Part shown: piece after piece, positions 13,576-62,223 of the stretch | Layout of the letters: the number at the start of each line of letters is the position of its first letter | Position numbering within the stretch: the first letter of the stretch is position 1 | Virus record (IMG/VR): IMGVR_UViG_3300045988_133735 | Strand: one strand, 5' to 3' | Length of the DNA stretch: 64,000 nucleotides | From: a virus | Notes under the pieces: generated by a model | Told to the model about the DNA's origin: nothing | Seen by the model: the letters and a program-made list of their open reading frames with translations, nothing else | Database searches by the model: none | Translations under genes and position numbers: made by a program

Positions 13576-13602
13576 ACTATTGGGTTCCTCTAACTGTTGA
13601 AT

Positions 13603-16807: not shown

Positions 16808-16935
16808 AGTGGATCATTGTCCTCCTTGATAAGGATATAGTGGGTGTCGCTTTATGGTTAATATGTTTAAGTACTGTTTGTAATGGCGAAATTTTGAGCT
16901 GCCAGAACATAGCGGACGAGAAATGCTCTCAGCAG

Positions 16936-16957
16936 CACAAACATAACTTAAATATAT
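16936..16957 (+). repeat. 22-bp exact repeat, copy 1 (CACAAACATAACTTAAATATAT)
   Basis: Identical 22-mer at 39157-39178. Both copies are intergenic, on the same strand and upstream of forward genes. Confidence 0.8.
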
Positions 16958-17289
16958 CATATCTATATTATACACCAGATTTTTGTTATTTGCAAGCGAA
17001 ATTGCATATATTTTCCGGGGCGATACGTTGTTTTTTGGCGATGCTGCGCAGGACGGCTGCTTAATGGAGCGTTTAACGGCGTTTATGCGCGAAATGTGCG
17101 TTTTTAGTGGCATTTTTAACGACTTTAGGACAAAATTTAACGTTTTTGATCAAAAAATGAGCGAAATTTGATCGATCTGGGAAGGTGATTTTGGTCTTTG
17201 TGGGGCACTAGCGTGATGAAATAACAATGATAGGGGCAATTTGTAACAATATAATACCATGCAATTTTAAACGATAATACGTTGTTTAC

Positions 17290-32966: not shown

Positions 32967-33044
32967 CCGGGTGTAGCGAAGCTGGTATCGCGCCAAATTT
33001 GGGATTTGGAGATTTCGCCCGTTCAAGTCGGGTCACTCGGACCA
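32967..33044 (+). tRNA. tRNA-Pro (TGG)
   Basis: CCGGGTG TA GCGA-AGCTGGTA-TCGC G CCAAA-TTTGGGA-TTTGG (7-nt variable) GCCCG-TTCAAGT-CGGGT CACTCGG A CCA. G37 is present. Confidence 0.7.
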
Positions 33045-33157
33045 TGGTGCAGGGTCTTTCCTTTCTACCTGTGCCTATTGTGTGTATAAAACGGTTTCCA
33101 TTAGACGAAACCGCGTGGCTGAAAATGCCGAGCAGGTACGATAATCCTGCCTTATAT

Positions 33158-33544
33158 GGGCCCGAAAGGTTTTCGACAGGGCTATGAAAATTCACAATTC
33201 GCAGGTCGGCCATCACCTTACGAGGCAAAAAACAATAAACGCTAACTACAATAGTTATCGCTGCGCGGCTTGATGCCGTGCCCAAAACAGCATCCTGATA
33301 GGCAGGTAAATGTTTGATGGTTCAAAGAATAAATCCCGGAACCCGATGTAAACGGTAATAAACACCGGCGTTCTCGGACGCTAAAACCGAGTGGTGGAGT
33401 GATGTAACAAACCGTTACGTCCCTGGGTTTGCTGTGTTGGCGGCATGAATTCCTTTCAAAAATTCTAAATGCTAACTATTGCGTAAGAAGATTGTGTACG
33501 AGTAATAGTTCTGGACGTGGGTTCGAATCCCACCGGGTCCACCA
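33158..33544 (+). ncRNA. ssrA: tmRNA
   Basis: The 5' end is GGGCCCGAAAGGTTTTCGACAGGG. The 3' end is GGACGTGGGTTCGAATCCCACCGGGTCCACCA. The acceptor has a G3-U70 pair. The internal tag frame is ..AAA ACA ATA AAC GCT AAC TAC AAT AGT TAT CGC TGC GCG GCT TGA (33229-33273). Confidence 0.85.
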
Positions 33545-33907
33545 GTGGCGCAAGCCGCAAAGCTAGGTTCGATGCGACAGCGTAGTGTAGTGCGAGGTCG
33601 CTGGGGTGGCGCAATTCCACCGTGGATGCAATGCATTCATAACGCTTTGACCGAAATTGTGCGAACAGACTGCGACGGGGTAGCTCCTCGTGGAGTGAGG
33701 GTCTGGTGACAACATGAGTAGGCGATAGGATGACCTGCGAAAGTGGTCTAGTCAGTTTGGTGCCCGGACTGGCGGAGAGTGGATTTAAAAGGGCAGCCTT
33801 TGAGGATGGACTCTGGGGAAGACAAAATGTACCTAGTTGTATCTGCTGACGCGGTTAAGTCGCATTGCACATCGCCGATGCTGTTACATGGTTAAATCCT
33901 CCTCTCT

Positions 33908-33983
33908 GTGGCGTTAGTTCAGTTGGCAGAACACTTGGCTCATAACCGAGTAGTCGTGGGTTCAAAGCCCTCACGCCGCACCA
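33908..33983 (+). tRNA. tRNA-Met or tRNA-Ile2 (CAT), elongator type
   Basis: GTGGCGT TA GTTC-AGTTGGCA-GAAC A CTTGG-CTCATAA-CCGAG TAGTC GTGGG-TTCAAAG-CCCTC ACGCCGC A CCA. Confidence 0.8.
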
Positions 33984-34026
33984 TTTCGTGTACGAATATC
34001 AACAAATCAAAAAGAGGTAAATCAAA

Positions 34027-34290
34027 ATGGCTGAGAATGCAGCTAAAAATACCGAAAGATATCAATCCTATAAACTTCAATGGATGTTGGATCATGGACA
34101 CACATTAGAGGAAATTTTTAGAGAACTCTACATGATTCAAAAGGAATACTTGGAAGACGGAGAGTCATGCCCAAGCATTTGGACGTTGTTGGATCGATGG
34201 GAAAAGGATATTGGGTTTGGTGGAGAATGTTGGGCTTGCTTTGATGAATGGCTGGAGAATGAAGGTAGAGAGGTAAATCAAAATGGCTGA
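34027..34290 (+). CDS. hypothetical protein
   Basis: 87 aa. Its RBS and start are identical over 22 nt to those of the next gene. Confidence 0.5.
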   Translation: MAENAAKNTERYQSYKLQWMLDHGHTLEEIFRELYMIQKEYLEDGESCPSIWTLLDRWEKDIGFGGECWACFDEWLENEGREVNQNG

Positions 34291-34954
34291 CAAGTATCTC
34301 AGTATCATTACAAACTTCGGCTGCCACTATAGCTGCCCTGAGTGTATTGTCCGCAATAACAAGCTCAAGATGACACCGACAGACGAGTATTCTTCTTATA
34401 TGCAGTTAGAGCATGTTCTGAAGAACGAATGTAATGACTGTAATTGGGTATCTGTGTCTGGCGGCGGTGATCCACTTTATCACTGGTGGGAACATCAGGC
34501 GTGGTGGACAGGATTCTTTTCGGTGTGTAAAGAACTTGGTCGCAAGATTGAGTTGCATACGAGCTATTATGATTTTGATCATGATGATGGAATTTTAATG
34601 TTTCCATTCGAACAGTTTGATAGAGTTGTGTATCATTTGCATTGTGCAGAGGAGCTTTATAAGATTTGTCGCCGGGGTAAAGAAATCGTTCGAGTGGTAT
34701 TCGTTGTGGACGATTCTATGGACGAATACGAAGTTAGCAGGATTTCAGCTATTGTTCAAGAAAGCGACGATATCGACGAGCTTACATTCCGGCAACGCGT
34801 GGATGCAAACTATAAGCCGACCTATCATTTGCGCGGTCTCCTGCTGGCGGGGCATAAAAAGGCTTGGTGGTATGTGACACAGTGCGATTACAATACTTAC
34901 TTCCACAACGGTAAACTGTACACGAAGTACACGGATATCTTTGAGAAGGAGTAA
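34283..34954 (+). CDS. radical SAM enzyme (minimal, 223 aa)
   Basis: CxxxCxxC cluster motif FGCHYSCPEC near the N-terminus, and a SAM-binding GGE-like motif VSGGGDPL. Confidence 0.65.
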   Translation: MADKYLSIITNFGCHYSCPECIVRNNKLKMTPTDEYSSYMQLEHVLKNECNDCNWVSVSGGGDPLYHWWEHQAWWTGFFSVCKELGRKIELHTSYYDFDHDDGILMFPFEQFDRVVYHLHCAEELYKICRRGKEIVRVVFVVDDSMDEYEVSRISAIVQESDDIDELTFRQRVDANYKPTYHLRGLLLAGHKKAWWYVTQCDYNTYFHNGKLYTKYTDIFEKE

Positions 34955-34959
34955 TTCAG

Positions 34960-35268
34960 ATGTACATTGTCGTAAGCGATTATACCAACGAAAAAGTTGA
35001 CATCTACAAATCAGTAAGTTTCGATAAAGCATTTCAGGCGAGAAGCGATGCGATTGATTTTGCTGCCCGTAGCTATCAGAGCTTCTTTGACAATATGCCC
35101 AGCGATGAAGCTGCACGGTATGAAAACGCAACGCGAATTAACACTGACTCTTATGCGGATTTCTGTGGGTGTGCTTTGTGTCCGTATCCCGAGTATGCTA
35201 TCGGAGCTGCGGTTGATAATGGTGAAGATAATCACATGTACTACATGGTATTTAAGGTGGAGGAGTGA
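34960..35268 (+). CDS. hypothetical protein
   Basis: 102 aa with an AAGGAG RBS. Confidence 0.5.
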   Translation: MYIVVSDYTNEKVDIYKSVSFDKAFQARSDAIDFAARSYQSFFDNMPSDEAARYENATRINTDSYADFCGCALCPYPEYAIGAAVDNGEDNHMYYMVFKVEE

Positions 35269-35360
35269 TTTCATGAAGCGATACCTTGTAAGCGTTTGGA
35301 TACGACAGTCTTATTCCATTTGTGGCAAAAAGCTGAGACCGGATTCTGAGGTAGTAAGTT

Positions 35361-35585
35361 ATGAAAAAACATAAAGATTTATTGCTGGCAGCCTGCGCAT
35401 CGGCTGTTTCGTTTTTGAGTCTCGATGATGTTTTTGAGAAACTTCTACGGCACATCTCGCTTGTTCAAATGGCAACAGGAAACATAAGTTCTCTTTACGG
35501 ACGTGTCAGCGAGTTGGCTCTTTCGGTATCTGTGGCTCTGTCGCTTGCGATTGGAGCTGTGGTATATATTTTATTCAAAAATTAA
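35361..35585 (+). CDS. small membrane protein
   Basis: 74 aa with N- and C-terminal hydrophobic segments. Lies upstream of the SPFH gene (an NfeD-like role is speculation). Confidence 0.45.
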   Translation: MKKHKDLLLAACASAVSFLSLDDVFEKLLRHISLVQMATGNISSLYGRVSELALSVSVALSLAIGAVVYILFKN

Positions 35586-35597
35586 AAGGAGGAACGA

Positions 35598-36509
35598 ATG
35601 AAGAAGTTCAAAAAGATTTTCGTGGTTTCGTGTGCAATCGTGATGGCGTTGACCTTTACGGGGTGTACCAAGAAAGAGGTGTATACAATCGAACCTCATG
35701 AAACTGCATTTCTGATTTCACTCTCTGAGGGCGGTGGGAAACAGGCGTCCTTTGAGAGTGAGGCAATGCTCGCTGAAGCAAAGGTGGCAGCCAAACAGGT
35801 GTACATTACTTACTCGAAGCGACATCTGTCGCCGACTGACATCATTGGTACTTGGGTACCGGATAACATGTTGGTTGTCGTCAATAGAACTCCTGTTACT
35901 CGTGAATGGTCCGAGGGCAAGGACAGTGGCACCAGCACTGTCAACCAGTCCATCTCTGCCGAAAGCAAGGAGTCTATTGGCTTCTCTGTCGGTATGAACT
36001 GCTCTGCTCAGATCTACACTGAAAACGATGCAGTCAAGTTCCTGTATTCCTACAACAACAAACAGCTCTCCGAGATTATGGATACTGAAATCCGTGCTCG
36101 TGTTGAAGCTGACTTTGTTGAAATGTGCGCCAAGTACACCATGAATGAGATCCTTGAGAAGAAGGCCGAGATCATGGAGTATGTCCGCAAGGATGTGACT
36201 GAGTATTTTGCAGAACGCGGTATCACGATTACTGTCCTTGGTATGAAGGATGGCATTGAGTACGACGATGCGTCTGTTCAGGCTGCTATTAACAAGTCCT
36301 TTGTGGCTGAGCGCAATGATGAGGCGCAGGAGATTGAGAATCAGACTAAGATTTCCAAGGCGAACGCAGAAGCCGAGGCGAATAAAATCATCTCTGAGTC
36401 TCTGACTGACCGGCTGATTCAGCAGCAGATGTATGAAAAGTGGGATGGTAAGCTTCCTACTTATGTCGGCGGCGATGCCAGCATTCCTGTACTGAACGAT
36501 ATGAAGTAA
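35598..36509 (+). CDS. SPFH/band-7 (prohibitin-like) lipoprotein
   Basis: 303 aa with a lipobox (ALTFTGC). SPFH-like core followed by an Ala/Glu-rich coil (AEANKIISE). Confidence 0.55.
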   Translation: MKKFKKIFVVSCAIVMALTFTGCTKKEVYTIEPHETAFLISLSEGGGKQASFESEAMLAEAKVAAKQVYITYSKRHLSPTDIIGTWVPDNMLVVVNRTPVTREWSEGKDSGTSTVNQSISAESKESIGFSVGMNCSAQIYTENDAVKFLYSYNNKQLSEIMDTEIRARVEADFVEMCAKYTMNEILEKKAEIMEYVRKDVTEYFAERGITITVLGMKDGIEYDDASVQAAINKSFVAERNDEAQEIENQTKISKANAEAEANKIISESLTDRLIQQQMYEKWDGKLPTYVGGDASIPVLNDMK

Positions 36510-36598
36510 CCTCGTAGGAACGGAGACATTAAACCCGTGTCCTGAGATCAACACAAGATCTAAAAACTGTGTGGCAGCTCGGAAAGACGAGCAAGTAT

Positions 36599-36681
36599 GT
36601 TTCGGTGCTGGAATCGGCAGACAGGGGAGTCTCAAAAACTTCTGCGAAAGCATGTGGGTTCAAGTCCCATCCGAAACACCA
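36599..36681 (+). tRNA. tRNA-Leu (CAA), class II
   Basis: GTTTCGG TG CTG-GAATCGGCAGA-CAG, GGAGT-CTCAAAA-ACTTC, variable arm TGC-GAAA-GCA, GTGGG-TTCAAGT-CCCAT, CCGAAAC A CCA. Confidence 0.8.
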
Positions 36682-36804
36682 TGGGTGAGTTGCGTCGCCC
36701 AAAAATCTCCTTTTCCTCACAAATGCTTAGTGGCTCATGAGTTCCAGACATGAATCACCGTGACTGAACAAGTCGTAGCAGGTACGCAATCCTGTTTTTG
36801 ATAA

Positions 36805-36890
36805 GTCGGTATGGTGGAATAGGCGAGACACGTCTGCTTTAGGGACAGATGCTTAAGTGCATGTGAGTTCAAATCTCACTACCGACACCA
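36805..36890 (+). tRNA. tRNA-Leu (TAG), class II
   Basis: GTCGGTA TG GTG-GAATAGGCGAGA-CAC, TCTGC-TTTAGGG-ACAGA (one C-A mismatch), variable arm ATGC-TTAAGT-GCAT, GTGAG-TTCAAAT-CTCAC, TACCGAC A CCA. Confidence 0.7.
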
Positions 36891-36948
36891 ATCTCGCATG
36901 GGTAGGATCTTTAGCGGTCAGATCCGGCCGCGCCTGTGCGAGATACCA
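36891..36948 (+). ncRNA. tRNA-minihelix-like element ending in ACCA
   Basis: ATCTCGCA ... TGCGAGAT forms an 8-bp closing stem around the GGATC-TTTAGCGGTCA-GATCC hairpin, followed by ACCA. It abuts the CCA end of tRNA-Leu(TAG). Confidence 0.3.
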
Positions 36949-37040
36949 CCCCCCTGTGGGGAATGTTAAATTTTTCCATGTACGTTATTCTCGGCTCGCT
37001 CGAAAGAGTGCAGCGTGCCTTTGTAAGCCGAGTATTTTAT

Positions 37041-37109
37041 GTGGCTGTAGCTCAGATGGTAGAGCAGCAAGCTAACTGCGCGCCGTTGGTTCAAGTCCAA
37101 CCAGTCACT
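37041..37109 (+). tRNA. aberrant tRNA-like gene (3-bp anticodon stem; loop AGCTAAC, possibly CUA)
   Basis: Canonical acceptor (GTGGCTG/CAGTCAC), D arm (GCTC-AGATGGTA-GAGC) and T arm (GTTGG-TTCAAGT-CCAAC). Only 19 nt separate the D and T arms, where 22-23 are expected. Confidence 0.45.
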
Positions 37110-37228
37110 CCGATGCCCGCTTATAGGGTCTCATTCCTCCTATTCGGGCTTTACCTCTTTTCTTCCTTGTTATTCCCGGCTCCATGGCGAATGCTGTGGC
37201 AATAAGGCGTAGTAAGCTGGGTTTATAT

Positions 37229-37303
37229 GCAGCGGTCGTACATCGGCTAGTATATCAGCCTTCCAAGCTGAGGAGGTGGGTTCGACTCCCATTCGCTGCT
37301 CCA
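37229..37303 (+). tRNA. tRNA-Gly (TCC)
   Basis: GCAGCGG TC GTAC-ATCGGCTA-GTAT A TCAGC-CTTCCAA-GCTGA GGAG GTGGG-TTCGACT-CCCAT TCGCTGC T CCA. Confidence 0.8.
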
Positions 37304-37611
37304 TCGTGTGCGACGGTTTGAGACTCCTACATGCAAATCCAGCCGGGTAAGTCCGTCCACAACCGGTGTAGGTAGACATCTTTACTCATTAGGTCTCTAA
37401 CTAAATGAGGAATAGAAAATCAGTTGTTCCAGCTAGATCGGGGATTGGCCGTTCATTGGCAAACGACAGGCATCACACCGGTAAATGATGCTGAGCCAAA
37501 TAGGAAGGGGAATAAGGTGCAAGTCGAGTAGCTGTCGGACGAATACTCTTCAGGTAGCCAGTAAACTGGAACGTAAAACGAATGTTGGCTGTTTCTGATT
37601 TTCTTTTATAT

Positions 37612-37698
37612 GCTACCATGATGTAACTGGCAGGCATGAGGGACTTAAAATCCCTTGCTGGAAACAGCGTGCGGGTTCAAGTCCCGCTGGTAGCACCA
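37612..37698 (+). tRNA. tRNA-Leu (TAA), class II
   Basis: GCTACCA TG ATG-TAACTGGCAGG-CAT G AGGGA-CTTAAAA-TCCCT, variable arm GCTG-GAAA-CAGC, GCGGG-TTCAAGT-CCCGC TGGTAGC A CCA. Confidence 0.8.
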
Positions 37699-43665: not shown

Positions 43666-44901
43666 ATGTACGTTACTTATTGGAATCCGCCGAGAACAAG
43701 GCAGATTACGTTTGATGAAATCCTTAGTGGAGTCGTTGACGTGAACCAGTTGAAATATGCTGGCGATGAAACTTCTACTCGAACTGTACAGCGTAATGGG
43801 TTGAATGATCGTCTCGTAGCAATTACAAACGTTACCAATATGATTGCACGGCTCGCGGAATTCAATCAGAAATACGCTCGTCTTGAAGCAGTACGTGACC
43901 TGTCGACGTATTACTATCACTTTGAAATCCCTAAGAAGACCGGCGGCTTTCGTCCAATTGATGCACCGACTAATGAATTGAGCGATGCGTTGGTTGAGTT
44001 GCGGACGCTGTTAAAAAGTTTCATGATTGCTGATTATCACACGGCAGCACACGCATATATCAACGGGCGCGGCACTCTAAGTGCAATTAAAAAGCATCAG
44101 GCAGGGCACAGATATACAGTAAAAGATCGTGAGACTGGGAAAGAAAAGATCGTCACCTATGAAAATAACTGGGCTGTCAAGTTTGACTTTCATGGATTCT
44201 TCCCGAGCTCCACTCCTGAGTTTATCTACGGTATGTTCAGAAAGATTTATCCGTTTTCTCTCATTATGAAGGATCGAAATGGATACAACCAGCTGACTAA
44301 AGCGATGCGTCTGTGCTTCTTGAACGGCGGTCTTCCGCAGGGAACACCAATCAGTCCGTGGATCACGAACGTTATGATGATCCCGTTTGATTATATGTTA
44401 AACAAGAAGCTTTCTTACAAATATACCATGAAAGACGGCATTTCTCGCACTTTTACATACACCAGATATGCAGACGATATCACCATCAGCTGCTATTTGA
44501 GTTTTGACCCGATGGAAATGCAGGATATTATCAAAGAGACGTTGGATGCAATCAATGCTCCGTTTACTTTGAATGAAGAAAAAACGCATTATGGTAATCG
44601 GCATTCGAGCGAAAACTGGATGCTCGGTCTGATGTGGAACGCCAATAACGATATCACAGTCGGATGGCGCAATTTTAAGGACTTCAAGAAGATGGCATCT
44701 AATTACATCGTCTGCAAGAAAGAAGGAAAAACGTGGGATCTTGAAGACCTGCAGCAGTTTAATGGCAGGTTGAATTACTACCGTATGGTAGAAAAAGAAG
44801 CGGTCGACACAGTGATCTCTCGGTACAACGAAAAATATCGTGTTGATATGATGGCAATGCTCAAAGCTGACTTAAAACCAAAAGAAGGAGTTGTTTTCTA
44901 A
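43666..44901 (+). CDS. reverse transcriptase, retron/retron-like type
   Basis: 411 aa with the RT motifs IPKKTGGFRPIDAP, KFDFHGFFPSS, GGLPQGTPISPWITN and YTRYADDITISC, plus the thumb-like WMLGLMWN. Confidence 0.8.
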   Translation: MYVTYWNPPRTRQITFDEILSGVVDVNQLKYAGDETSTRTVQRNGLNDRLVAITNVTNMIARLAEFNQKYARLEAVRDLSTYYYHFEIPKKTGGFRPIDAPTNELSDALVELRTLLKSFMIADYHTAAHAYINGRGTLSAIKKHQAGHRYTVKDRETGKEKIVTYENNWAVKFDFHGFFPSSTPEFIYGMFRKIYPFSLIMKDRNGYNQLTKAMRLCFLNGGLPQGTPISPWITNVMMIPFDYMLNKKLSYKYTMKDGISRTFTYTRYADDITISCYLSFDPMEMQDIIKETLDAINAPFTLNEEKTHYGNRHSSENWMLGLMWNANNDITVGWRNFKDFKKMASNYIVCKKEGKTWDLEDLQQFNGRLNYYRMVEKEAVDTVISRYNEKYRVDMMAMLKADLKPKEGVVF

Positions 44902-45859: not shown

Positions 45860-46675
45860 ATGGCAGAAACCGCAAAGAAAGTGGCACAAAAAACCATTCT
45901 TTTCCCAGTTGAAGATCGGCCTGCAAAACTCGTCGTTACAGAGGACGATATTGAACGAATTATTCAGCAGGCCGTTAAAAGTGCCACTGCAACGAAAAAA
46001 GCACGGAAACCTCGTCGGACGGATAGTCTTTATCTCAAGGATGGGCGCAGAAAGCCAACCCCGGCAGATCCCATCAAGTCAAAGGAAGATTTCAAGAAGA
46101 TTGTTGATTACCTTGGGTCTAACGGACCTGAAGAAATCGCGCTTAGAAATAAAACGATGTTCATTCTCGGTTGTTCAATTGGTGTTCGATGCGGCGATTT
46201 GTTGAAGCTTAAAACGGCTGATGTTTATTATGAGAACGCTCATGTAAAAGATCATGTTGAACTGATCGAGCAGAAGACCGGCAAGCGAAACGTGTGTAAG
46301 ATTTCTCATATGGCAAAAGAAGCTTTAAGAGAATATTATCAGGCAATTGGTTTTCGAATTGACCGTGACACGCTTCTTTTTCAGAGCAAGAAAGGTGGAC
46401 AGCTTAACGTTAGATCGGTGAGCAACCTTTTGAAGAAAGCTGGTAAGGCGTGTGGTTTAAATATTGAGTTATCTACTCATAGTATGCGTAAAACTTATGC
46501 CATGGCAGCATTACAAAGCGCTGAGGGTACAGTTGATGGAGCGAACATCTTGAATATTCTCCAAACAAAATTTAATCACAGCGACCAGCGTATTACGATG
46601 AGATATATCAAAATGGATCAAGAAAAACTTGATGAAGTCTCTGAAAATGTTTCTGACTGGTTTGAAGGAGAATGA
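45860..46675 (+). CDS. tyrosine recombinase / phage integrase family
   Basis: 271 aa with Arg in GVRCGDL, HxxR in THSMRKT, and the catalytic Tyr context ITMRYIK. Confidence 0.7.
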   Translation: MAETAKKVAQKTILFPVEDRPAKLVVTEDDIERIIQQAVKSATATKKARKPRRTDSLYLKDGRRKPTPADPIKSKEDFKKIVDYLGSNGPEEIALRNKTMFILGCSIGVRCGDLLKLKTADVYYENAHVKDHVELIEQKTGKRNVCKISHMAKEALREYYQAIGFRIDRDTLLFQSKKGGQLNVRSVSNLLKKAGKACGLNIELSTHSMRKTYAMAALQSAEGTVDGANILNILQTKFNHSDQRITMRYIKMDQEKLDEVSENVSDWFEGE

Positions 46676-51679: not shown

Positions 51680-52507
51680 ATGGTCAAAGCAAATTATTAT
51701 GAAATCAGTTCTTTCCCTGATGGCACTCCGCTGATTAAGAAGGATAAAGCTATCAATTATCTCAATGCGATCAATATCGTCTGGACGTTTGAATCCATGG
51801 CAGAGCTCCCCACAGTCATTATGATCGCAAAGGACGCAAAGGATAACGGGGCAGAAGTCGAGCTGTTTATGCCGTATATTCCGAACGCTCGTATGGATCG
51901 CGCTTATCACGATGAGGATGTGTTTACTCTCAAGTGGTTTGCCGATGAGATCAATCGGTGCGGATTTAACCGCGTTGTTGTATTTGATCCTCACAGCGAT
52001 GTGGCTCCGGCTCTGATCGATCGTTGTGAAGTACACACTCCGATTCGTGAGATTTGTCAGGCAATCGAAAAAAGTAAGCCTGATGTGGTCTATTTCCCAG
52101 ATGCCGGCGCAATGAAACGGTATGAGGAAACTGTTCACTGGGCACTCGATCGTGTCGGTTGTAAGGCTTATATCATTCACGGAGACAAGAAGCGTGACTG
52201 GAAGACCGGAAAGATTCTCGGCTTGGATGTCACCGGTTATCCTCCCAAGGGCGGCAAGGTTCTGATGATTGACGATATTTGTTCTTACGGTGGTACCATG
52301 TACTACTCAGCCAAAAAGCTGAAGGAACTAGGTGCTGGTGATATCGATATGTACGTCAGTCATTGCGAGAACAGCATTCTGGATAAGGAACGCGGTCATT
52401 TGTTTGACGACCCGGAGCTGATCCATACGATTTTCACGACTAACAGTATTTTTACTGGTCATCACGAAAAGATTCATGTGTTGGAACCCCGTTGGGACGA
52501 GGACTGA
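51680..52507 (+). CDS. ribose-phosphate pyrophosphokinase (Prs)-family enzyme; candidate ADPR-pyrophosphate synthetase (NARP1 Adps-like)
   Basis: 275 aa with SFPDGT (compare FSDGE), PYIPNARMDR (compare PYxxYARQDR) and the PRT loop VLMIDDICSYGGT. A NAMPT-family gene lies 0.7 kb downstream. Confidence 0.65.
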   Translation: MVKANYYEISSFPDGTPLIKKDKAINYLNAINIVWTFESMAELPTVIMIAKDAKDNGAEVELFMPYIPNARMDRAYHDEDVFTLKWFADEINRCGFNRVVVFDPHSDVAPALIDRCEVHTPIREICQAIEKSKPDVVYFPDAGAMKRYEETVHWALDRVGCKAYIIHGDKKRDWKTGKILGLDVTGYPPKGGKVLMIDDICSYGGTMYYSAKKLKELGAGDIDMYVSHCENSILDKERGHLFDDPELIHTIFTTNSIFTGHHEKIHVLEPRWDED

Positions 52508-52508
52508 T

Positions 52509-52955
52509 ATGGATATTTGGGAACTAGATATCTCGTTTTATACCGATGGAGATTTTGGTTGGAATTTTGCCCAAATCGATATGAAGTGTGATCATTATCG
52601 AGAATCATATTCGCTGCATATTTATCGTGAAATCAATGAAAATCAAACTGAAGCATGTGTAAAAGATGAATTCTATTCAATCTTAGATTTCCTAATCGAT
52701 AATGTCCATGGAAAGGACTATGCAGTTAAGTATGTAAAGGATTCTATCTATGATGCTTTCTGTGATGTTGGTGAGCGCAATTATCATAAAGAATTATCCG
52801 GGAATTATGATGGATCACATATTGATTTTAAAATTCATTCACCAAAGGATAAGCGCACTTTTAAAATCGAATGTACGGCTGATGAACTTGAAAAGATTCA
52901 AGACAGGTATCTTGGAGATTGTCATGAGATGGTAAAGAAACTTCTGGAGGACTGA
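52509..52955 (+). CDS. hypothetical protein
   Basis: The start is taken at MDIWELD, 1 nt after the upstream TGA stop (GACTGATATGG). Confidence 0.5.
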   Translation: MDIWELDISFYTDGDFGWNFAQIDMKCDHYRESYSLHIYREINENQTEACVKDEFYSILDFLIDNVHGKDYAVKYVKDSIYDAFCDVGERNYHKELSGNYDGSHIDFKIHSPKDKRTFKIECTADELEKIQDRYLGDCHEMVKKLLED

Positions 52956-52956
52956 T

Positions 52957-53157
52957 ATGCGGACATTTAAGGAAGTTGAAGTAGGAAGCCGATTCTTTGA
53001 TTCATCGGACTACTATGCGACTTTGTATATCAAAATACCTCCTATTAAGGACAATTTTGGATTTGAATTCAATGCGCTATATGACGTGTATGTTGATGAA
53101 GCCCATCCGAATGTAAAACGTCCGGCATTTTTCAGACCAGACGATCCAGTAAAGTAA
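52957..53157 (+). CDS. hypothetical protein
   Basis: 66 aa with a GGAGG RBS. Confidence 0.45.
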   Translation: MRTFKEVEVGSRFFDSSDYYATLYIKIPPIKDNFGFEFNALYDVYVDEAHPNVKRPAFFRPDDPVK

Positions 53158-53172
53158 AGGAGAGAATTTAAA

Positions 53173-54651
53173 ATGATCAATATTAACCCTATGCTGCTGT
53201 GCGATTTCTACAAGACGACTCATAGTAAGCAGTTCCCGGCTGGCACTACTAAGCTTGTTAGTTATTTCACTCCGCGCATGAGCCGTCTGGATGGCGTGGA
53301 TGAAGTCGTTGTGTTTGGTGTTCAGGCGTTCTGCAAGAATTATCTGCAGAATTATTTTAAACGTTGGTTTTTTGATTTCCCAAAGGAGTGGGTTGTCTCA
53401 AATTATCAGCGTGTCCTGGACGCAACCATTGGCAAGGACGCTTATGATATCGATAAGATTGCTGCCCTGCATGACCTGGGCTATCTTCCTGTCGAGATCA
53501 AGGCGCTGCCAGAAGGCACTCGTTGCCCCATCCATGTGCCGTTCCTTGAGATGAGCAATACACATCCTGATTTCGCATGGGTTCCGCAGTTCCTCGAATC
53601 TTTTATGAGTTCTGAGCTGTGGCATCCGATGATTTCTGCAACGGTCGGAACTCTGTATCGCGATATCGTGGACAAGTATTACGATGAAACCGTGGATGAT
53701 GGCGTACCGCATGCTCGTGCTCTAGGCGATTTCAGTTTCCGTGGTCAGGAGTGTATGCAGTCGGCAGTTAAGTCAAGCGCCGGTTGGTGTCTGAGTTTTC
53801 TGAATACGGCTACTGTCCCTGCGATTCCGTATCTGGAAGAAATGTATCGCTGCAATTGTGAAGAAGAGCCTGTTGCGTTTGGCGCTGTTAGCACCGAGCA
53901 TAGTGTGATGTGTTCTAACTTCGCTGTCGATGGTGACGAGATTACTTTCATCCGCCGGGCACTGACTGAGCTGTATCCCAATATGAGCTTCAGCATGGTA
54001 TCTGATTCCTACGACTATTGGAATCTAGTCGATAATATCCTGCCGCAGCTCAAGGATGAAATTATGGCGCACAACGGTACGATGCTGATTCGTGGCGACT
54101 CTGGTGATCCGGTCGAAATCGTCACGCAGACCGTCTATCATCTGTGGAATATCTTCGGTGGCACGGTCAACAGCAAGGGTTATAAGGTGCTCGACCCTCA
54201 TGTAAAGGCTCTGTATGGCGATTCCATCACTGTGCAGCGCTGTGAAAAGATTTATGCCGAACTCAAAGCACATGGTTTCGCCTGCAACAATGTCAGTCTT
54301 GGCGTTGGTTCGTTCTCCATGCAGTGCATCGAGCAGAATGGTCAGTTGAAGCCGTTTACTCGCGATACTTTTGGCATGGCAGTTAAGGCAACTTATGGCG
54401 TTGTCAATGGCAAGGAGATTCAGATCTTCAAAGATCCCAAGACTGATACCGACCACTTCAAGAAGAGTCTGAAGGGCATGTGTTATGTCACTAAGGATGA
54501 TTCTGGAAAGCTGGTTTGTACTGATGGTCTGATGGATCATGCTGCTCATTCGGATGGCAATCTGTTGCAGCCCGTATTCCGTAATGGCGTGATGGTCAAG
54601 GAATACAGTTTGAAGGAAGTTCGCGACCGGCTGTGGGAAGGAAAGTTCTAA
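53173..54651 (+). CDS. nadV: nicotinamide phosphoribosyltransferase family (NAMPT/NadV; or NARP1 Namat-like)
   Basis: 492 aa. The N-terminus NPMLLCDFYKTTHSKQFPAGTTKLVSYFTPR matches the NAMPT signature (compare LATDSYKVTHYKQYP..YSYFECR). Confidence 0.75.
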   Translation: MININPMLLCDFYKTTHSKQFPAGTTKLVSYFTPRMSRLDGVDEVVVFGVQAFCKNYLQNYFKRWFFDFPKEWVVSNYQRVLDATIGKDAYDIDKIAALHDLGYLPVEIKALPEGTRCPIHVPFLEMSNTHPDFAWVPQFLESFMSSELWHPMISATVGTLYRDIVDKYYDETVDDGVPHARALGDFSFRGQECMQSAVKSSAGWCLSFLNTATVPAIPYLEEMYRCNCEEEPVAFGAVSTEHSVMCSNFAVDGDEITFIRRALTELYPNMSFSMVSDSYDYWNLVDNILPQLKDEIMAHNGTMLIRGDSGDPVEIVTQTVYHLWNIFGGTVNSKGYKVLDPHVKALYGDSITVQRCEKIYAELKAHGFACNNVSLGVGSFSMQCIEQNGQLKPFTRDTFGMAVKATYGVVNGKEIQIFKDPKTDTDHFKKSLKGMCYVTKDDSGKLVCTDGLMDHAAHSDGNLLQPVFRNGVMVKEYSLKEVRDRLWEGKF

Positions 54652-54884
54652 TGAGTGGTTCAAGAACGTGGATGGGCGAACCAGAGCTATTATACTTCAT
54701 TGTTGATGGCAAAGCAGTTGCGTGTGAGTATCGAAATGAAGCTAGAAAGCTTATTCAAAATGGATTTTTCAGGAAATATGGGTATGGCAATGTTATAGTT
54801 GTGAATCCTACTTTTGAAAAATTCAATCTAAATAGTCCGAGAGCAGCACAGTATTTTGCAATTAAAAATTTAGATAAGAGGTGA
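54651..54884 (+). CDS. hypothetical protein
   Basis: The start is taken at MSGSRTW (TAATG overlap). Confidence 0.45.
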   Translation: MSGSRTWMGEPELLYFIVDGKAVACEYRNEARKLIQNGFFRKYGYGNVIVVNPTFEKFNLNSPRAAQYFAIKNLDKR

Positions 54885-54888
54885 GTTC

Positions 54889-55362
54889 ATGGCCATAATT
54901 ATCAAAGAGGGCAACGTATTTGATTCCGATGCCGACATTATTTGCCATCAGGTGAATTGTCAGGGTGTAATGGGGTCAGGTGTTGCTAAAGAAGTTCGCG
55001 AGCGTTATCCAGATGTATATGCTCAGTATAAGTATCTATGTGATATAAATAAGGATTATTCTGCAGGATTACTTGGAAAGGCACAAATCATTTCGGCTGA
55101 CAACGCATTTTCTCGATACATCGCTAATTGTTTCGGTCAGGATAAATACGGTTATGATGGTGCTCAGTATACTTCAGTTGGTGCATTGATGGAAGCTTTT
55201 GTCTATGTAGCGGAGATTGCACGAAAGAATCACTTAAAGGTCGCTATGCCGTATAAAATCGGTTGCGTTCGTGGTGGTGCTGACTGGGAGACCGTCAAGA
55301 AGATCATTGATGTTACATTTCAAGACGTAGATGTAGAACTGTGGAAACTGGAGGGTAAATAA
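54889..55362 (+). CDS. macro domain protein (ADP-ribose binding/hydrolase)
   Basis: 157 aa with GNVFDSDADIICHQVNCQGVMGSGVAKEV, a typical macro-domain N-terminal pattern. Confidence 0.6.
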   Translation: MAIIIKEGNVFDSDADIICHQVNCQGVMGSGVAKEVRERYPDVYAQYKYLCDINKDYSAGLLGKAQIISADNAFSRYIANCFGQDKYGYDGAQYTSVGALMEAFVYVAEIARKNHLKVAMPYKIGCVRGGADWETVKKIIDVTFQDVDVELWKLEGK

Positions 55363-55363
55363 T

Positions 55364-56128
55364 ATGCGTAAGTATGAATTTGATGCAGCAAAGACAAAGG
55401 ATGAAATCATTACGTGGATTCGGAATTATTTCCGAAAGAATGGCCCTGATTGCAATGCTGTGATTGGTATTTCTGGCGGCAAGGATTCAAGTATCGTCGC
55501 TGCTCTGTGCTGCGAGGCGCTTGGCAATGGCCGCGTGATCGGAGTTCTGATGCCGCAGGGTGTACAGGAAGATATCGATGTGGCGCGGGAACTGGTTGCT
55601 CATCTAGGGATCAAGTCCTTCGAGATCAATATCGCCGAGACTGTGAATACGCTGTTAGCCAATGGACGGGCAGCGGGGCTGTGTGATTCAAAGCAGGCTC
55701 GTGTAAATCTGCCGGCACGAATCCGTATGGCAACCCTGTTCATGGTGTCTCAGAGTACGAATGGGCGAGTGGCTAACACTTGCAACGCTTCAGAAAATTT
55801 CGTCGGGTGGCAAACTGTGGGAGGGGATGGATTTGGCCAGTTCAGTCCTCTTAGTAAGCTGACTGTTACTGAGGTAAAATCCGTTGGTCGTGAGTTGGGT
55901 CTTCCTGAAAAGTTCATCGAGAAAGCACCTGCAGATGGGCTGACTGGCAAAACCGATGAAGATAATTTCGGGTTTACTTATGAATTCCTTGACAAATATA
56001 TCCGCACTGGTGAGTTTGGTGGCGATACCGCAACTGCAGCTAAGATCGATCGGATGCATGAGGCGAATTTGTTTAAGGATTTGCCGATGCCTACGTATGA
56101 CCCATCCTTGTTTAATTGGTGGGGCTAA
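55364..56128 (+). CDS. nadE: NH3-dependent NAD+ synthetase
   Basis: 254 aa with the PP-loop GISGGKDSS. Size and context fit NadE. Confidence 0.7.
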   Translation: MRKYEFDAAKTKDEIITWIRNYFRKNGPDCNAVIGISGGKDSSIVAALCCEALGNGRVIGVLMPQGVQEDIDVARELVAHLGIKSFEINIAETVNTLLANGRAAGLCDSKQARVNLPARIRMATLFMVSQSTNGRVANTCNASENFVGWQTVGGDGFGQFSPLSKLTVTEVKSVGRELGLPEKFIEKAPADGLTGKTDEDNFGFTYEFLDKYIRTGEFGGDTATAAKIDRMHEANLFKDLPMPTYDPSLFNWWG

Positions 56129-56535
56129 TGATTTGGATCGTACTGTTTTTAAGTATGATATGGCTTCATATTTATGACGATTATCATACACAAGGGATTC
56201 TGGCGCAATTCAAACAGAAGAAATGGTGGAAAGAAAATTATCCACAGGATCTGTACAAACACGATTGGAGGATTGCTCTATACGAACATGCTTTTCAATG
56301 GTCGTTCACCACGATGCTCCCGCTGCTTGTGTATTCTATGTGGGCATGGAAAGAAACAGGTTTATATCATGGTTTGATATGGTGGACTGGATTGCTTGTC
56401 ATAAATACAAAGGTTCATGCTGAAATAGACAATGAAAAAGCAAATAATCTGACGATCAGTTTGTTTATAGATCAGATTCTTCACATTCTTCAGATCGGAT
56501 TTACGATTATACTTTTTATGATTGGAGTGAATTAA
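56128..56535 (+). CDS. membrane protein (DUF3307-like?)
   Basis: The start is taken at MIWIVLFL (TAATG overlap). Four hydrophobic segments. Contains HIYDDYHTQG. Confidence 0.45.
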   Translation: MIWIVLFLSMIWLHIYDDYHTQGILAQFKQKKWWKENYPQDLYKHDWRIALYEHAFQWSFTTMLPLLVYSMWAWKETGLYHGLIWWTGLLVINTKVHAEIDNEKANNLTISLFIDQILHILQIGFTIILFMIGVN

Positions 56536-57108
56536 ATGGAAAAGACAAAGGTTGATGTCTTGATTGTTGTCGATATGCAGAACGATTTTGTTACTGGCGC
56601 TCTTGGCACTCCTGAAGCTCAGGCCATTGTGCCAAAGGTCGTGGAGAAGATCAAGAACTGGAATGGTCCGGTATTCTACACGATGGACACTCATGATGAA
56701 GACTATCTTAATACTCAGGAGGGCAAACATCTTCCCATTATTCATTGCGTTGAAGGAACAGACGGATGGAAGTTGATAAACGAAATCGGAGATGGTTTTG
56801 TCACAGACTACGATCAAATCTATCATAAGAAAACGTTTGGTAGTTATGAGTTGTTCATTGATGCAACGTTAGACGATAATCAAAAAATCTATCAGACGTT
56901 GTTTCCTGGGAATGTTAATTCCATCACTTTGATTGGGCTTTGCACAGATATTTGCGTGATTACAAATGCGTTGCTTTTGAAAACGGCAAAGCCTGAAGTT
57001 CCTATCATTGTGGATGCAAGCTGCTGTGCCGGTGTTACTCCTGAGTCTCATAAGAACGCACTAGCTGCCATGAAGATGTGCCAGATTGAGATTGTCAACG
57101 AGGGATAA
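56536..57108 (+). CDS. pncA: nicotinamidase / isochorismatase-family hydrolase
   Basis: 190 aa with VLIVVDMQNDFV and the catalytic Cys context GLCTDICV. Confidence 0.75.
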   Translation: MEKTKVDVLIVVDMQNDFVTGALGTPEAQAIVPKVVEKIKNWNGPVFYTMDTHDEDYLNTQEGKHLPIIHCVEGTDGWKLINEIGDGFVTDYDQIYHKKTFGSYELFIDATLDDNQKIYQTLFPGNVNSITLIGLCTDICVITNALLLKTAKPEVPIIVDASCCAGVTPESHKNALAAMKMCQIEIVNEG

Positions 57109-57109
57109 A

Positions 57110-57298
57110 ATGCACTACGTTAATGGAGATATTATTTTGAGTGCTGATGGAGCGGAACGGCTCCAGTATCTTTTAAGTCATCCAAACCCAGAGGAAGTAC
57201 AAAAGAAATTAAAGGCATGTATAGAAGATCTCGCTAAAATGAACTATCGAGAGAATGAGGATGGCACTGCTTCTTTTGATATTGATATTGAGGTGTAA
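57110..57298 (+). CDS. hypothetical protein
   Basis: The start is taken at MHYVNGD. Confidence 0.45.
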   Translation: MHYVNGDIILSADGAERLQYLLSHPNPEEVQKKLKACIEDLAKMNYRENEDGTASFDIDIEV

Positions 57299-57334
57299 TC
57301 AATGGAAGAAATTATGATTTTCGGTTAATTCACA

Positions 57335-57377
57335 GCGGATGCCAGGTGAGTAGCGGTACTGGGGCAGACATAACCGC
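57335..57377 (+). promoter_or_regulatory. conserved 5'UTR element copy C (hairpin GCGG-TACTGGGGCAGACATAA-CCGC)
   Basis: Third copy of the element. It lies 34 nt upstream of the GTG start at 57411. Confidence 0.5.
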
Positions 57378-57410
57378 CGCCAGAATAAAATTGTAAAGGA
57401 GAATTGAATT

Positions 57411-57824
57411 GTGTGGACTCTTATTCAAACTGAATCCCACGGTGGATATAACAGAATTGGATATATTGACGGACATAATCCAGAATATGGGACTGTCATG
57501 GCAATGTATCGCGTCAACAATTATGGTGAACTCGACTTCTATTACCAGTACGAAATGAATGATGATGTTGTGGCGAGTTTTGAATACTGGGCAAAAAGAG
57601 TTATTGGTGAACTCCGAACTAAAAAAGATACAGTCACGAAATGTGCGGATTGTTGTTATCTTGGAGATAAATACAGTTTTCCACTTCCTAATGACAAGAT
57701 TGATGTCGATGATAAAAATCCGTTTCTAAAGCATTATTATTGCTGTTGCGGAGATTCTGAAAGATACGAGAAAGATGTTACGAGTGAGATTGTATCTGAC
57801 TGTGACTGTTTTGAGGGGATTTGA
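57411..57824 (+). CDS. Cys-rich hypothetical protein
   Basis: 137 aa with a GTG start after AAAGGAG. Contains CADCCY..YYCCCGD..DCDC. Confidence 0.5.
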   Translation: MWTLIQTESHGGYNRIGYIDGHNPEYGTVMAMYRVNNYGELDFYYQYEMNDDVVASFEYWAKRVIGELRTKKDTVTKCADCCYLGDKYSFPLPNDKIDVDDKNPFLKHYYCCCGDSERYEKDVTSEIVSDCDCFEGI

Positions 57825-57826
57825 TT

Positions 57827-58090
57827 ATGTTTGTAATTGATGAAACGACTCCAAAGATTGCAATTCCTGACGGATATTTTGTGTGTCTACCAACTGGAGC
57901 CACGGACGATTATCCGGGTCTTGGCATCTTTTTCTCTAAAGACGGAAAAACAGTTGATTGGAATGACTTGATTTCAATCACTGAATACAATTCTGTATTT
58001 AAAAATATCCAAACGGTTGGCTTTCAGCAGGGGCAGGAAAACTATGTCGCTGCTATTCGTTTTGAAGACGGAAACATTATTGAAGAATGA
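57827..58090 (+). CDS. hypothetical protein
   Basis: The start is taken at MFVIDE. Confidence 0.5.
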   Translation: MFVIDETTPKIAIPDGYFVCLPTGATDDYPGLGIFFSKDGKTVDWNDLISITEYNSVFKNIQTVGFQQGQENYVAAIRFEDGNIIEE

Positions 58091-58101
58091 GGTAGAGCAA
58101 A

Positions 58102-58650
58102 ATGAACGCGGAAAACATTAAGAATGAAGCATATCAGCTGATTGATAAATATTTCATGCCAGCTAAAGCAATTATCGTAAAGGATTTTCTTAATACATAC
58201 GGATTCTGGGACGCTCCAGCTTCTACCAAATATCACGGCAATTACCCGGGCGGCTTAGCTGAACACAGTCTAGCCGTTGCAAAAAATCTTCTGATGTTAA
58301 CGGAGAAGCTTGGTTTGAAGTGGGATAATCCCGGGTCTCCATTTGTTGTTGGTCTCCTTCATGATGTTTGTAAGATGGATCAATACAAGCTGATTAGCAC
58401 AGAAAATGGTTATCAGTACGTTTATACAAATGATTCAATCTACAGTCATCACGGTGAAAAATCTATTTGTATGTTGGCGAATTGTGTTACCTTGACCCAA
58501 GAGGAGATCGCTTGTATTCGCTGGCATATGGGCGCATATGAGACCGATACAAACGAGTGGAAATATTATGGCAACGCCATTGCAAAATATCCAAACGTGC
58601 TCTGGACGCACACGGCGGACATGATGGCAAGTCATATCGAAGGAGTGTAA
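58102..58650 (+). CDS. HD-domain phosphohydrolase
   Basis: 182 aa with GGLAEHSLAVA and LLHDVCK (H...HD). Confidence 0.6.
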   Translation: MNAENIKNEAYQLIDKYFMPAKAIIVKDFLNTYGFWDAPASTKYHGNYPGGLAEHSLAVAKNLLMLTEKLGLKWDNPGSPFVVGLLHDVCKMDQYKLISTENGYQYVYTNDSIYSHHGEKSICMLANCVTLTQEEIACIRWHMGAYETDTNEWKYYGNAIAKYPNVLWTHTADMMASHIEGV

Positions 58651-61419: not shown

Positions 61420-62223
61420 ATGACACGAGAAGAATTACAACGCATCATTGATAGCGAACCCTATGATTTTCTACGTACTGATCCTCACCTTGGCAAGCAT
61501 TTGATGTTTCTGACCATTGGCGGCAGCCATGCTTATGGAACGAATGTAGCAGGATCAGATGTTGATATTCGCGGTGTCGCTTTGAACTCCAAAGAGGATC
61601 TACTCGGGTTGGGTGAGTTTGAACATCGTGTAGATACGATGACGGATACAACGGTATTTAGCTTCAACAAGGCTGCGAAGTTATTGTGTAGCGGGAATCC
61701 AAACATGCTGGAACAGTTTGGTAATCCAGACGAGCTTGTTATCACTTACAGCCCGACCGCAAAGCTGTTGTTCGATAATAAGAATTTGTTTCTATCAAAG
61801 CGTGTGATTTATTCATTTGGTGGATTTGCAGGGAAGTTAATTAAAGAAGCAGATGCTAAATGGCGTGCGTACCTGTATGAAGTTGAAGTATCTGGCGTGA
61901 ATCCAAATGTTAAACCGTATATTCCATGTGGAGAAAAACGTTTCAATAAGATCGTAATGAATGTGATTCGCTTATATCATATGTTGTTTGACATCTTAGA
62001 AAAAGGTGAGATCAACACTTATCGTGGGGCTGAGCACGATATTTTGATGCAGATTCGAAACGGGGACTACGACTACGAAGAGTTGCGCAAGCATACGATT
62101 CCTATTTATGAGGCAAGACTGCAGGCAGACAAGAAAGAAACAGAGCTGCCTGACCGAGTTGATATGAAACAGGTCAATGAGTTAGCCGTGACTATCAATG
62201 AGCAGGCGCTAAAGGTGGTGTAA
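61420..62223 (+). CDS. nucleotidyltransferase (pol-beta superfamily)
   Basis: 267 aa with the GS-x9-SD-x-D pattern GGSHAYGTNVAGSDVDIRG. Confidence 0.6.
   Translation: MTREELQRIIDSEPYDFLRTDPHLGKHLMFLTIGGSHAYGTNVAGSDVDIRGVALNSKEDLLGLGEFEHRVDTMTDTTVFSFNKAAKLLCSGNPNMLEQFGNPDELVITYSPTAKLLFDNKNLFLSKRVIYSFGGFAGKLIKEADAKWRAYLYEVEVSGVNPNVKPYIPCGEKRFNKIVMNVIRLYHMLFDILEKGEINTYRGAEHDILMQIRNGDYDYEELRKHTIPIYEARLQADKKETELPDRVDMKQVNELAVTINEQALKVV

Follow-up and report, generated by a model that had tools for sequence, protein, structure and literature searches.

A gut phage gene cassette predicted to rebuild NAD+ from ADP-ribose and nicotinamide by way of nicotinic acid, and its relatives in gut Clostridia

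The subject of this study is an island of genes for nicotinamide adenine dinucleotide (NAD+) metabolism at positions 51,680 to 58,650 of IMG/VR virus record IMGVR_UViG_3300045988_133735. The whole 64,000 nucleotide stretch that was analysed is called the window. Five genes of the island encode an Adps-like kinase, a Namat-like transferase, a macro domain protein, the NAD+ synthetase NadE and a PncA-type nicotinamidase. We give a probability of roughly 55% to the proposal that this five-gene phage cassette rebuilds NAD+ from ADP-ribose (ADPR) and nicotinamide via nicotinic acid. Judged from the sequences, the odds slightly favour an island that would be a "deamidated" form of NAD+ reconstitution pathway 1 (NARP1) with an associated macro enzyme.

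From the computed gene identities, linkage, active-site substitutions and co-variation we infer substrates, products and a role in counter-defence. The Adps-like kinase would convert ADPR and ATP to ADP-ribose pyrophosphate (ADPR-PP), and PncA would convert nicotinamide to nicotinate and NH3. The transferase would then join nicotinate to ADPR-PP, yielding nicotinic acid adenine dinucleotide (NaAD) directly, and an NH3-dependent NadE would form NAD+ from NaAD, ATP and NH3. The macro protein may feed the pathway with free ADPR released from ADPR-1''-phosphate or ADP-ribosylated targets. Most likely, the cassette helps the phage against NAD+-depleting defences, or in some other way keeps up NAD+ during infection.

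A route through NaAD needs neither NadD nor NMNAT. A previous sequence-only reading of the window had seen no NMNAT/NadD-like gene, and indeed none was found in the 64 kb window by phmmer with E. coli NadD or by jackhmmer with a phage NMNAT-like protein. That reading had concluded that the pathway logic was incomplete. This does not necessarily follow, since the amide-binding Asp of the transferase is lost, the loss co-varies with PncA and NadE, and the predicted NaAD route is complete. The four steps would account for the lost Asp, the near-universal NadE and PncA, the absence of NadD, and the ADPR-centred neighbours (macro, NrtR and PARG genes).

The kinase groups with Adps

The window is phage DNA, with genes for a large terminase, PhoH and an exonuclease and with members of several PHROG families. 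Its relatives are IMG/VR contigs of 100-150 kb from gut samples. A megablast search of phage records returned a single partial relative, MT835544.1, an unannotated faecal "Bacteriophage sp.". All open reading frames (ORFs) named in the sequence-only reading are on the + strand at the positions it had given, and profile searches confirmed its families. All genes are under strong purifying selection, with dN/dS of 0.04-0.09 each against close relatives.

NARP1 consists of Adps and Namat (Osterman et al. 2024, bioRxiv 10.1101/2024.02.11.579819; structures in PMC12774641 and PMC13586617). The first gene of the island (51680-52507, + strand) encodes a 275 amino acid (aa) protein with a Prs fold, predicted to be an Adps-like ADP-ribose pyrophosphokinase. 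It matched phrog_619 (E 4e-61), and scored 86 bits against TIGR01251, under the cutoff of 113. The protein was aligned with ICP1 Adps (structure paper PMC13586617), the homologues from phage Kida and the Bas63-like phage heid, and E. coli Prs. ICP1 Adps residues F18, R87, H121, D161, K185, D212, D213, I214 and C215 are conserved, while the D216 position is Ser, the same as in phage Kida. A hairpin motif, K-x-R-D-x-x-T-G-x-I, is common to the window protein and the ICP1, Kida and heid Adps, but not E. coli Prs. Neither the N-terminal extension nor the C-terminal helices of Prs are present. The Lys185 hairpin, the DD motif, a remodelled PP loop and the loss of the Prs C-terminal helices are thus all found in the window protein. 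BLASTP gave 105 bits with the validated ICP1 Adps and 47 bits with E. coli Prs. A comparison of this kind, Adps versus bona fide Prs, had been proposed as a check and comes out on the side of Adps. The gene has a dN/dS of 0.067.

These results bear on the main rival, a phage-boosted Preiss-Handler pathway. The Prs-like protein would make phosphoribosyl pyrophosphate (PRPP), PncA would supply nicotinate, the transferase would produce nicotinic acid mononucleotide (NaMN), the host NadD would convert it to NaAD, and the phage NadE would finish. We consider this explanation unlikely. In these comparisons the Prs-like protein falls with Adps and has neither the termini nor the motifs of canonical Prs, and its TIGR01251 score below the cutoff also speaks against a PRPP synthetase.

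The transferase is Namat-like with an altered nicotinamide pocket

The transferase gene (53173-54651, + strand) encodes a 492 aa protein of families PF04095 and PF18127, with 460 bits to NF006629. Its best PDB matches are the crystallised SPbetaL1 Namat, 9w5x and 9w5w (E 3e-130, 438 bits), whereas true Nampts (human and Xanthomonas) match at ~1e-52 and about 180 bits. The top superposition of the AlphaFold model (pLDDT 81) is also Namat (TM 0.90, 45% identity), followed by H. ducreyi NadV and human NAMPT. The NAMPT-like protein of the sequence-only reading is therefore far nearer Namat than true Nampts; Namat versus NadV was the second comparison that had been called for. With the hallmarks of Adps in the kinase and Namat as the closest solved structure of the transferase, the earlier assignment of this pair to the NARP1 type holds. 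The dN/dS of the transferase gene is 0.038.

Residue positions in this protein are cited in SPbetaL1 numbering. The nicotinamide contacts listed in the Namat structure paper are F189, R192, D215, A242, R306, D13' and Y15' (PMC12774641). Asp215 of SPbetaL1 Namat hydrogen-bonds the nicotinamide amide, and a D215A mutation lowers NAD+ formation 8-fold. The corresponding Asp219 makes human NAMPT specific for nicotinamide, and a D219S change is recorded as switching the substrate (PMC7096376, PMC4919578). In the window protein D215 is replaced by Ala213 and A242 by Ser240, so the Asp215-amide pocket of NARP1 is not present. No change is seen at the remaining five nicotinamide contacts, at the residues that contact the ribose phosphate, or at the catalytic His. 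Conserved residues are D13, Y15, F189, R192, R306, D308, the catalytic His, R40, F392 and the TRD motif.

The signature was found in 120/120 of the closest database homologues (at least 63% identity), each with Ala at position 215. Among the 150 nearest clusters at 50% identity, position 215 is Ala, Ser or Val in 54, and position 242 is Ser or Gly in 54/54 of these. A comparison of 23 Ala/Ser-type with 113 Asp/Glu-type sequences over 481 columns identified T33, L168, D215, S239 and A242 as the class-defining columns, two of which are nicotinamide contacts. Classified by these residues, the Namat-like enzyme falls in a subfamily of its own, with Ala/Ser at 215 and Ser/Gly at 242.

The family varies in other ways too. 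A phage Namat clade has Glu at the Asp215 position (L093, L097, L099, L103, L105, L109, L124-L127, L130, L132, L151, L154 and L156), with many members from one gut data set. Its genes adjoin Adps without NadE or PncA, and except for L103 its members have a non-canonical clamp helix. Many Namat-family proteins (P0122-P0270; L077 at 3968-5749) are 570-1100 aa long with an insertion near window residue 318-320, and the Namat of phage heid has ~100 extra residues at this site. These large insertions may be inteins or inserted domains.

NadE and PncA

The NadE gene (55364-56128, + strand) encodes a 254 aa NH3-dependent NAD+ synthetase that scored 166 bits against TIGR00552 (cutoff 63.65) and matched PF02540 at E 1e-48. 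The best PDB match is 2e18 (E 9e-31). The loop GISGGKDSS is present and the CN_hydrolase (glutaminase) domain is absent, as expected for the NH3-dependent type. NadE is uncommon in phage records (40/50,697). The "NadE" genes of marine phages HTVC008M and P-TIM68 were considered as relatives of the cassette and discarded; they are unrelated and lie in sugar-modification clusters.

The nicotinamidase gene (56536-57108, + strand) encodes 190 aa. The protein is of the isochorismatase/nicotinamidase family; it matched PF00857 (E 1e-23) and NF008623 (E 1.5e-11, 44.5 bits), the latter under the equivalog cutoff, and its membership in PncA therefore rests on six aligned residues plus the best matches. 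These residues are the catalytic Asp/Lys/Cys and the metal-binding Asp-His-His, all of which align with the best PDB match, the P. horikoshii nicotinamidase 1im5.

The cassette is linked in phages and in gut Clostridia

Adps, the Ala/Ser-type Namat, the macro gene, NadE and PncA occur together in 68/68 related IMG/VR phage loci with enough sequence to tell. One more related locus (L053, the 69th) ends ~870 bases after the Namat gene and is outside this count. In four divergent phages among the 68 (43-64% identity) the genes PncA-Adps-Namat-Macro-NadE are contiguous or nearly so. The clustering of the five genes is not due to chance. In the window, the Adps-like and transferase genes are on the same strand with a 665 bp gap that contains two small ORFs; in all relatives the two genes are adjacent or nearly so.

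The partner genes follow residue 215. In the first sample (68 phage and 5 bacterial loci) NadE and PncA flank 73/73 Ala/Ser-type loci that reach far enough, and they are found within 7 kb of 0/84 Asp/Glu-type loci. Of ~160 Ala/Ser-type loci with enough flank, nearly all adjoin a nicotinamidase gene and NadE. NadD was not found within 7-8 kb in ~245 loci.

The island is not specific to phages: its four-gene core turned out to be a widespread chromosomal operon of gut Clostridia. A bacterial scan with one genome per species gave at least 582 confirmed matches, of which the best 80 were examined. These came mainly from Lachnospiraceae, Ruminococcus and Oscillospiraceae. In 66 of the best 80 the gene order is exactly PncA-Adps-Namat-NadE, with Namat of the Ala/Ser type, and most of the others end at a contig edge. 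The operon is flanked by ordinary genes. Often it adjoins a gene for a PARG-type macro protein or for NrtR, whose regulator family reportedly responds to ADPR. The window NadE and the short NadE of these operons share 51-62% identity, and the window PncA and theirs share 46-58%. For all four proteins the identity between phage and bacteria is 40-67%, and the cassettes are therefore homologous as a block.

The same core is found in phAss-1 of the code-15 clade (L246, OQ749652.1, 91037-103777), whose genome paper does not discuss it. The order there is PncA-Adps-Namat-hyp140-NadE, flanked by tRNA genes, with an Ala-type Namat that has a canonical clamp. The 140 aa ORF has no match to the macro profile.

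One could also suppose two independent modules, with a NARP1-AP system (NARP1 plus a macro phosphatase, described below) that still uses nicotinamide, next to NadE and PncA genes that boost deamidated salvage by the host. In favour of this, NARP1-AP is an established system whose macro gene accompanies ~15% of NARP1 operons, and nadE is among the phage auxiliary NAD genes in a published catalogue (PMC11662467). Yet D215A costs SPbetaL1 Namat 8-fold in activity with nicotinamide, human D219A is listed as a loss of activity, and PncA would destroy the substrate of Namat. The absence of NadE and PncA from all 84 Asp/Glu-type loci sampled, their presence beside nearly every Ala/Ser-type one, and the tight bacterial operon of all four genes are further points against independence. 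We find two modules quite improbable.

Is ADPR-PP or PRPP the donor?

The change in the nicotinamide pocket argues for nicotinate as substrate but says nothing about the donor. ADPR-PP is bound through an adenine clamp, and the R40A/F392G double mutant of Namat no longer uses ADPR-PP (PMC12774641). The selectivity clamp of Namat comprises a stacking Arg/Lys/Tyr in a loop and a helix G-S-X-phi-X-phi-X-phi-T-R-D whose positions 3 and 7 are aromatic. The window protein retains 5/7 of the published AMP-contact residues, among them R40 in the loop and F392 at position 3. Its helix, GSFSMQC-IEQNGQLKP-FTRD, contains a 9-aa insertion, and position 7 (Tyr396) is Cys. AlphaFold modelled the insertion as a hairpin (pLDDT ~70). 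An aromatic residue nearly always precedes TRD, and other members of the Ala-type clade have a fully canonical clamp, GIGSYTYQY[NV]TRD. Three canonical-clamp Ala-type members, P0134, P0143 and phAss-1, sit with Adps, PncA and NadE, and one, P0266, has no partner within 7 kb. In a neighbour-joining tree the Ala/Ser clade falls inside the span of three validated Namats in 68/100 bootstraps. The retained R40 and F392, the same partners beside canonical-clamp Ala-type members, and the position in the tree argue that ADPR-PP is still the donor.

Several observations weigh the other way. The clamp insertion and the Cys at Tyr396 could weaken adenine recognition and so favour PRPP, and canonical Namat is known to keep PRPP activity in vitro. 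The formation of NaAD from nicotinate and ADPR-PP was not reported in the literature searched. In bacteria, niacin might be salvaged mainly through this operon, and net synthesis in that way would need PRPP and NadD. NMNAT-family genes are in or near 5 of ~160 Ala/Ser-type cassettes (L067, L069, L202, L203, L234), which hints at a part for mononucleotide intermediates in some genomes. Second among the PDB matches of NadE is 3fiu, the Francisella NadE, which is reported to prefer NaMN. Partner genes are missing within 7 kb of one Ala-type locus, L245. Finally, all the co-variation lies within one clade and so amounts to one evolutionary event, and bootstrap support is moderate.

Some of these points are also what the PRPP route with host NadD has in its favour: a canonical Namat able to use PRPP, an interrupted clamp helix in the window, NMNAT-family genes in or near a few cassettes, and an operon common in bacterial chromosomes that need external niacin salvage as well. 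NCBI also names the Namat-like relatives nicotinate phosphoribosyltransferase, though this name is generic for the model. Set against it are the kinase itself, the retained R40 and F392, the relatives with a fully canonical clamp and identical partners, and the absence of NadD from every cassette. In addition, the putative ADPR-producing macro gene is universal in the phage versions, and under the PRPP route its ADPR would go to waste. The route from ADPR-PP and nicotinate to NaAD is the reading that we favour.

Two of the phage loci with NMNAT-family genes have further features. L067, a divergent phage with a Ser-type Namat, carries its NMNAT-family gene (7365-7952) between Adps and the transferase gene, and a gene for NAD-dependent DNA ligase (11852-13933) just downstream. 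In the phage locus L069, an NMNAT-like gene (1977-2543) is 4 kb upstream of the cassette. Directly upstream of the same cassette (3720-6248) there is an 843-aa ORF that matches the Major Vault Protein shoulder (E 7e-24) and Vault_3 (E 4e-8).

The macro protein and the purpose of the cassette

The macro gene (54889-55362, + strand) encodes a 157 aa protein of the DarG/Poa1p-like class. It matched PF01661 (E 7e-9), phrog_335 "phosphatase" (E 2e-41) and DarG macro-domain models (74-75 bits, with 75 bits for that of PADLOC). Its PDB matches are the DarG macro domain 5m3i (1e-10) and Poa1p 6lfq (2e-5), the latter over the N-terminal 66 residues only. From these matches the macro protein is predicted to supply free ADPR, as each candidate activity, phosphatase or de-ADP-ribosylase, yields free ADPR.

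A macro-domain ADPR-1''-phosphate phosphatase, Adpp, was described with ~15% of NARP1 operons; the combination, NARP1-AP, defeats aRES (bioRxiv 10.64898/2026.01.28.702374, January 2026). In our sample of canonical loci a macro gene was found in 12/80 (15%). The NARP1-AP layout calls for a PF01661, PF14519 or PF20016 gene no more than two genes from the pair, and the window has this layout, as its macro gene is the second gene downstream of the transferase gene. Aligned over its full length, the window protein has 24-32% identity with macros within canonical Adps-Macro-Namat operons, and the macros of canonical NARP1-AP operons match the same DarG model with 26-53 bits. The systems differ, as the macro gene is present in 69/69 related phage loci compared with ~15% of canonical NARP1 operons, and the window protein, a putative ADPR-1''-phosphatase, scores higher against DarG-type models than against Poa1p. 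The sequence-only reading had held that macro, NadE and PncA all go beyond the two-gene NARP1. For the macro gene this is overtaken by the published NARP1-AP layout, while the linkage of NadE and PncA was not found in the searched literature and still stands as an addition.

The presence of the macro gene in 69/69 phage loci and in 4/80 bacterial loci favours counter-defence as the purpose in phages. The same chemistry could have a housekeeping purpose, with ADPR and nicotinamide from normal NAD+ consumers recycled and NAD+ kept high for phage replication. The core is a chromosomal operon among ordinary metabolic genes, with NrtR adjoining in some bacterial loci; an NAD-dependent DNA ligase gene is beside the cassette in one divergent phage; and among the island proteins scanned, only the macro protein matches a defence model (DarG). 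However, canonical NARP1 and NARP1-AP are proven counter-defences, and the distribution of the macro gene fits an add-on acquired in an arms race. We look on housekeeping as possible but doubtful as the purpose, and the two roles are not mutually exclusive.

As for the origin of the pathway, it seems an even call whether a nicotinate:ADPR-PP transferase pathway is native to hundreds of gut Clostridia, where it would recycle ADPR and nicotinamide, and was repeatedly acquired by large gut phages that armed it with a macro gene as counter-defence.

Comparison with known NAD+ pathways

What the window shares with NARP1 is an Adps-like gene near a Namat-like one, a matching fold and catalytic core, most of the ADPR/AMP contacts, and ADPR as the likely ribosyl source. 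The window differs from NARP1 by the substitutions Asp215 to Ala and Ala242 to Ser, the 9-aa clamp insertion, and the two small ORFs between the genes. PncA and NadE accompany the Ala/Ser-type pair in nearly every case, and the predicted product of this pair is NaAD instead of NAD+. The likeness to NARP1-AP is a macro gene within two genes of the pair and of the same class (24-32% identity, DarG/Poa1p-like profile matches).

With the Preiss-Handler pathway (PncA, PncB, NadD, NadE) the cassette shares PncA, NadE as the last step, and deamidated intermediates. Unlike that pathway, it has no NaPRT of the PncB family and no NadD in the window, and its transferase is of the NAMPT/Namat family and paired with an Adps-like kinase.

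NARP2 (Nampt and NMNAT, phage KVP40) and NARP3 (PnuC and NadR, PMC13464706) are further phage-encoded means of NAD+ restoration. In contrast to NARP2, no NMNAT was found in the 64 kb window, and the transferase is 29% identical to the KVP40-type NadV of phage nt-1; the distant relatives L067 and L069 do add an NMNAT-like gene. The NARP3 components PnuC and NadR had no match among the island ORFs in Pfam, NCBIfam or PHROG searches. NAD gene clusters of gut jumbo phages were catalogued before (PMC11662467).

In bacteria, prs-nadV operons under NrtR (PMC2330246) and NARP1 homologues such as that of Paenibacillus foliorum (PMC12774641) are known. These also are chromosomal Prs-like/NadV-like pairs, sometimes next to NrtR, but PncA and NadE are not linked to them as in the Clostridial PncA-Adps-Namat(Ala/Ser)-NadE operon. 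None of the full-text literature searched joins ADPR-PP to NaAD or NARP1 to NadE and PncA, and the Clostridial operon is not described there.

If the NaAD route is correct, the condensation of nicotinate with ADPR-PP would be a new reaction of NAD+ metabolism and the cassette a further phage route of NAD+ reconstitution. It would explain why genes for NadE and a nicotinamidase accompany a NARP1-like pair where NadD is absent. It would also provide a sequence rule, with Asp215/Ala242 for nicotinamide users and Ala-or-Ser215/Ser242 for nicotinate users. The operon is in at least several hundred species of gut Clostridia, with its genes now annotated as Prs and "nicotinate phosphoribosyltransferase", and the reconstruction of NAD+ and niacin recycling in the gut microbiome would be altered. 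It would suggest that phages fit their counter-defence chemistry to the salvage logic of the host.

Accessory ORFs and the HD protein

The sequence-only reading had pointed to the unassigned ORFs of the island (52509-53157, 54651-54884 and 57110-58090) as the possible source of a missing step. This is unlikely, as they are mosaic among near-identical relatives and gone from divergent phages and bacterial operons. Two small variable non-core ORFs (52476/52509-52955 and 52957-53157, + strand) follow the kinase gene. These have no match in Pfam, NCBIfam, PHROG or PADLOC. Among relatives with a 93-99% identical transferase they are present, absent or swapped for an allele of ~42% identity, and they are absent from divergent phages and bacterial operons. 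The small ORF after the transferase gene (54633-54884, + strand, 77-83 aa) has no family match and occurs as two alleles or is absent among close relatives. After PncA there are three small variable ORFs on the + strand (57086/57110-57298, 57411-57824 and 57821-58090). None of the three has a PHROG match, the second and third have no Pfam match, and all are patchy among close relatives.

The gene for a small membrane protein (56116-56535, + strand) between NadE and PncA is also accessory. It matched phrog_2470 (E 1e-8), with DUF3307 below the cutoff, and is found in only ~15/66 close relatives.

The last gene of the island (58102-58650, + strand) encodes a 182 aa HD-domain protein. PF01966 is just under the cutoff, phrog_5889 matched, and there is no PDB sequence match. 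The AlphaFold model (pLDDT 92.6) has a sole significant PDB fold match, the HD domain of the YhaM exoribonuclease (9h3f, TMq 0.65, E 7e-4). A role as NAD/ADPR hydrolase was considered and rejected; the match to 3ccg, "HD hydrolase involved in NAD metabolism", is insignificant (E 0.6, TMq 0.36). The gene is conserved in the close clade only and is missing from divergent phage and bacterial cassettes. The HD protein, which the sequence-only reading had counted as part of the NAD island, is therefore probably outside the NAD module.

When L001-L066 were compared with the window, the island appeared as a recombination mosaic. The transferase is constant at 93-99% identity. Macro (66-96%), PncA (64-99%), HD (65-98%) and an upstream ATPase (60-100%) each have at least two alleles in varied combinations. 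A scan of 47-62 kb for promoters and terminators did no better than one on shuffled sequence and allowed no operon boundaries to be drawn.

Other features of the window

Downstream of the NAD cassette, the gene at 61420-62223 encodes a nucleotidyltransferase that was considered as the missing NMNAT. It was ruled out, as it belongs to the RlaP family (RNA repair pathway). Six tRNA genes (Pro, Met, three Leu and Gly) are at 32967-37698. Together with the YhaM-like HD protein, the RlaP gene and the tRNA set hint at a theme of RNA repair or processing downstream of the cassette. The window also has a phage-borne tmRNA-like gene (33158-33544) with the tag peptide ANYNSYRCAA.

A reverse transcriptase ORF (43666-44901; PF00078 E 2e-13, phrog_2825) is ~1 kb upstream of a phage-integrase-family ORF (45860-46675), and the pair could be a diversity-generating or retron-like element. 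Near 16.8 kb (window ~16000-17000) the sign of the GC skew and the coding strand flip, with genes on the - strand before this point and on the + strand after it.

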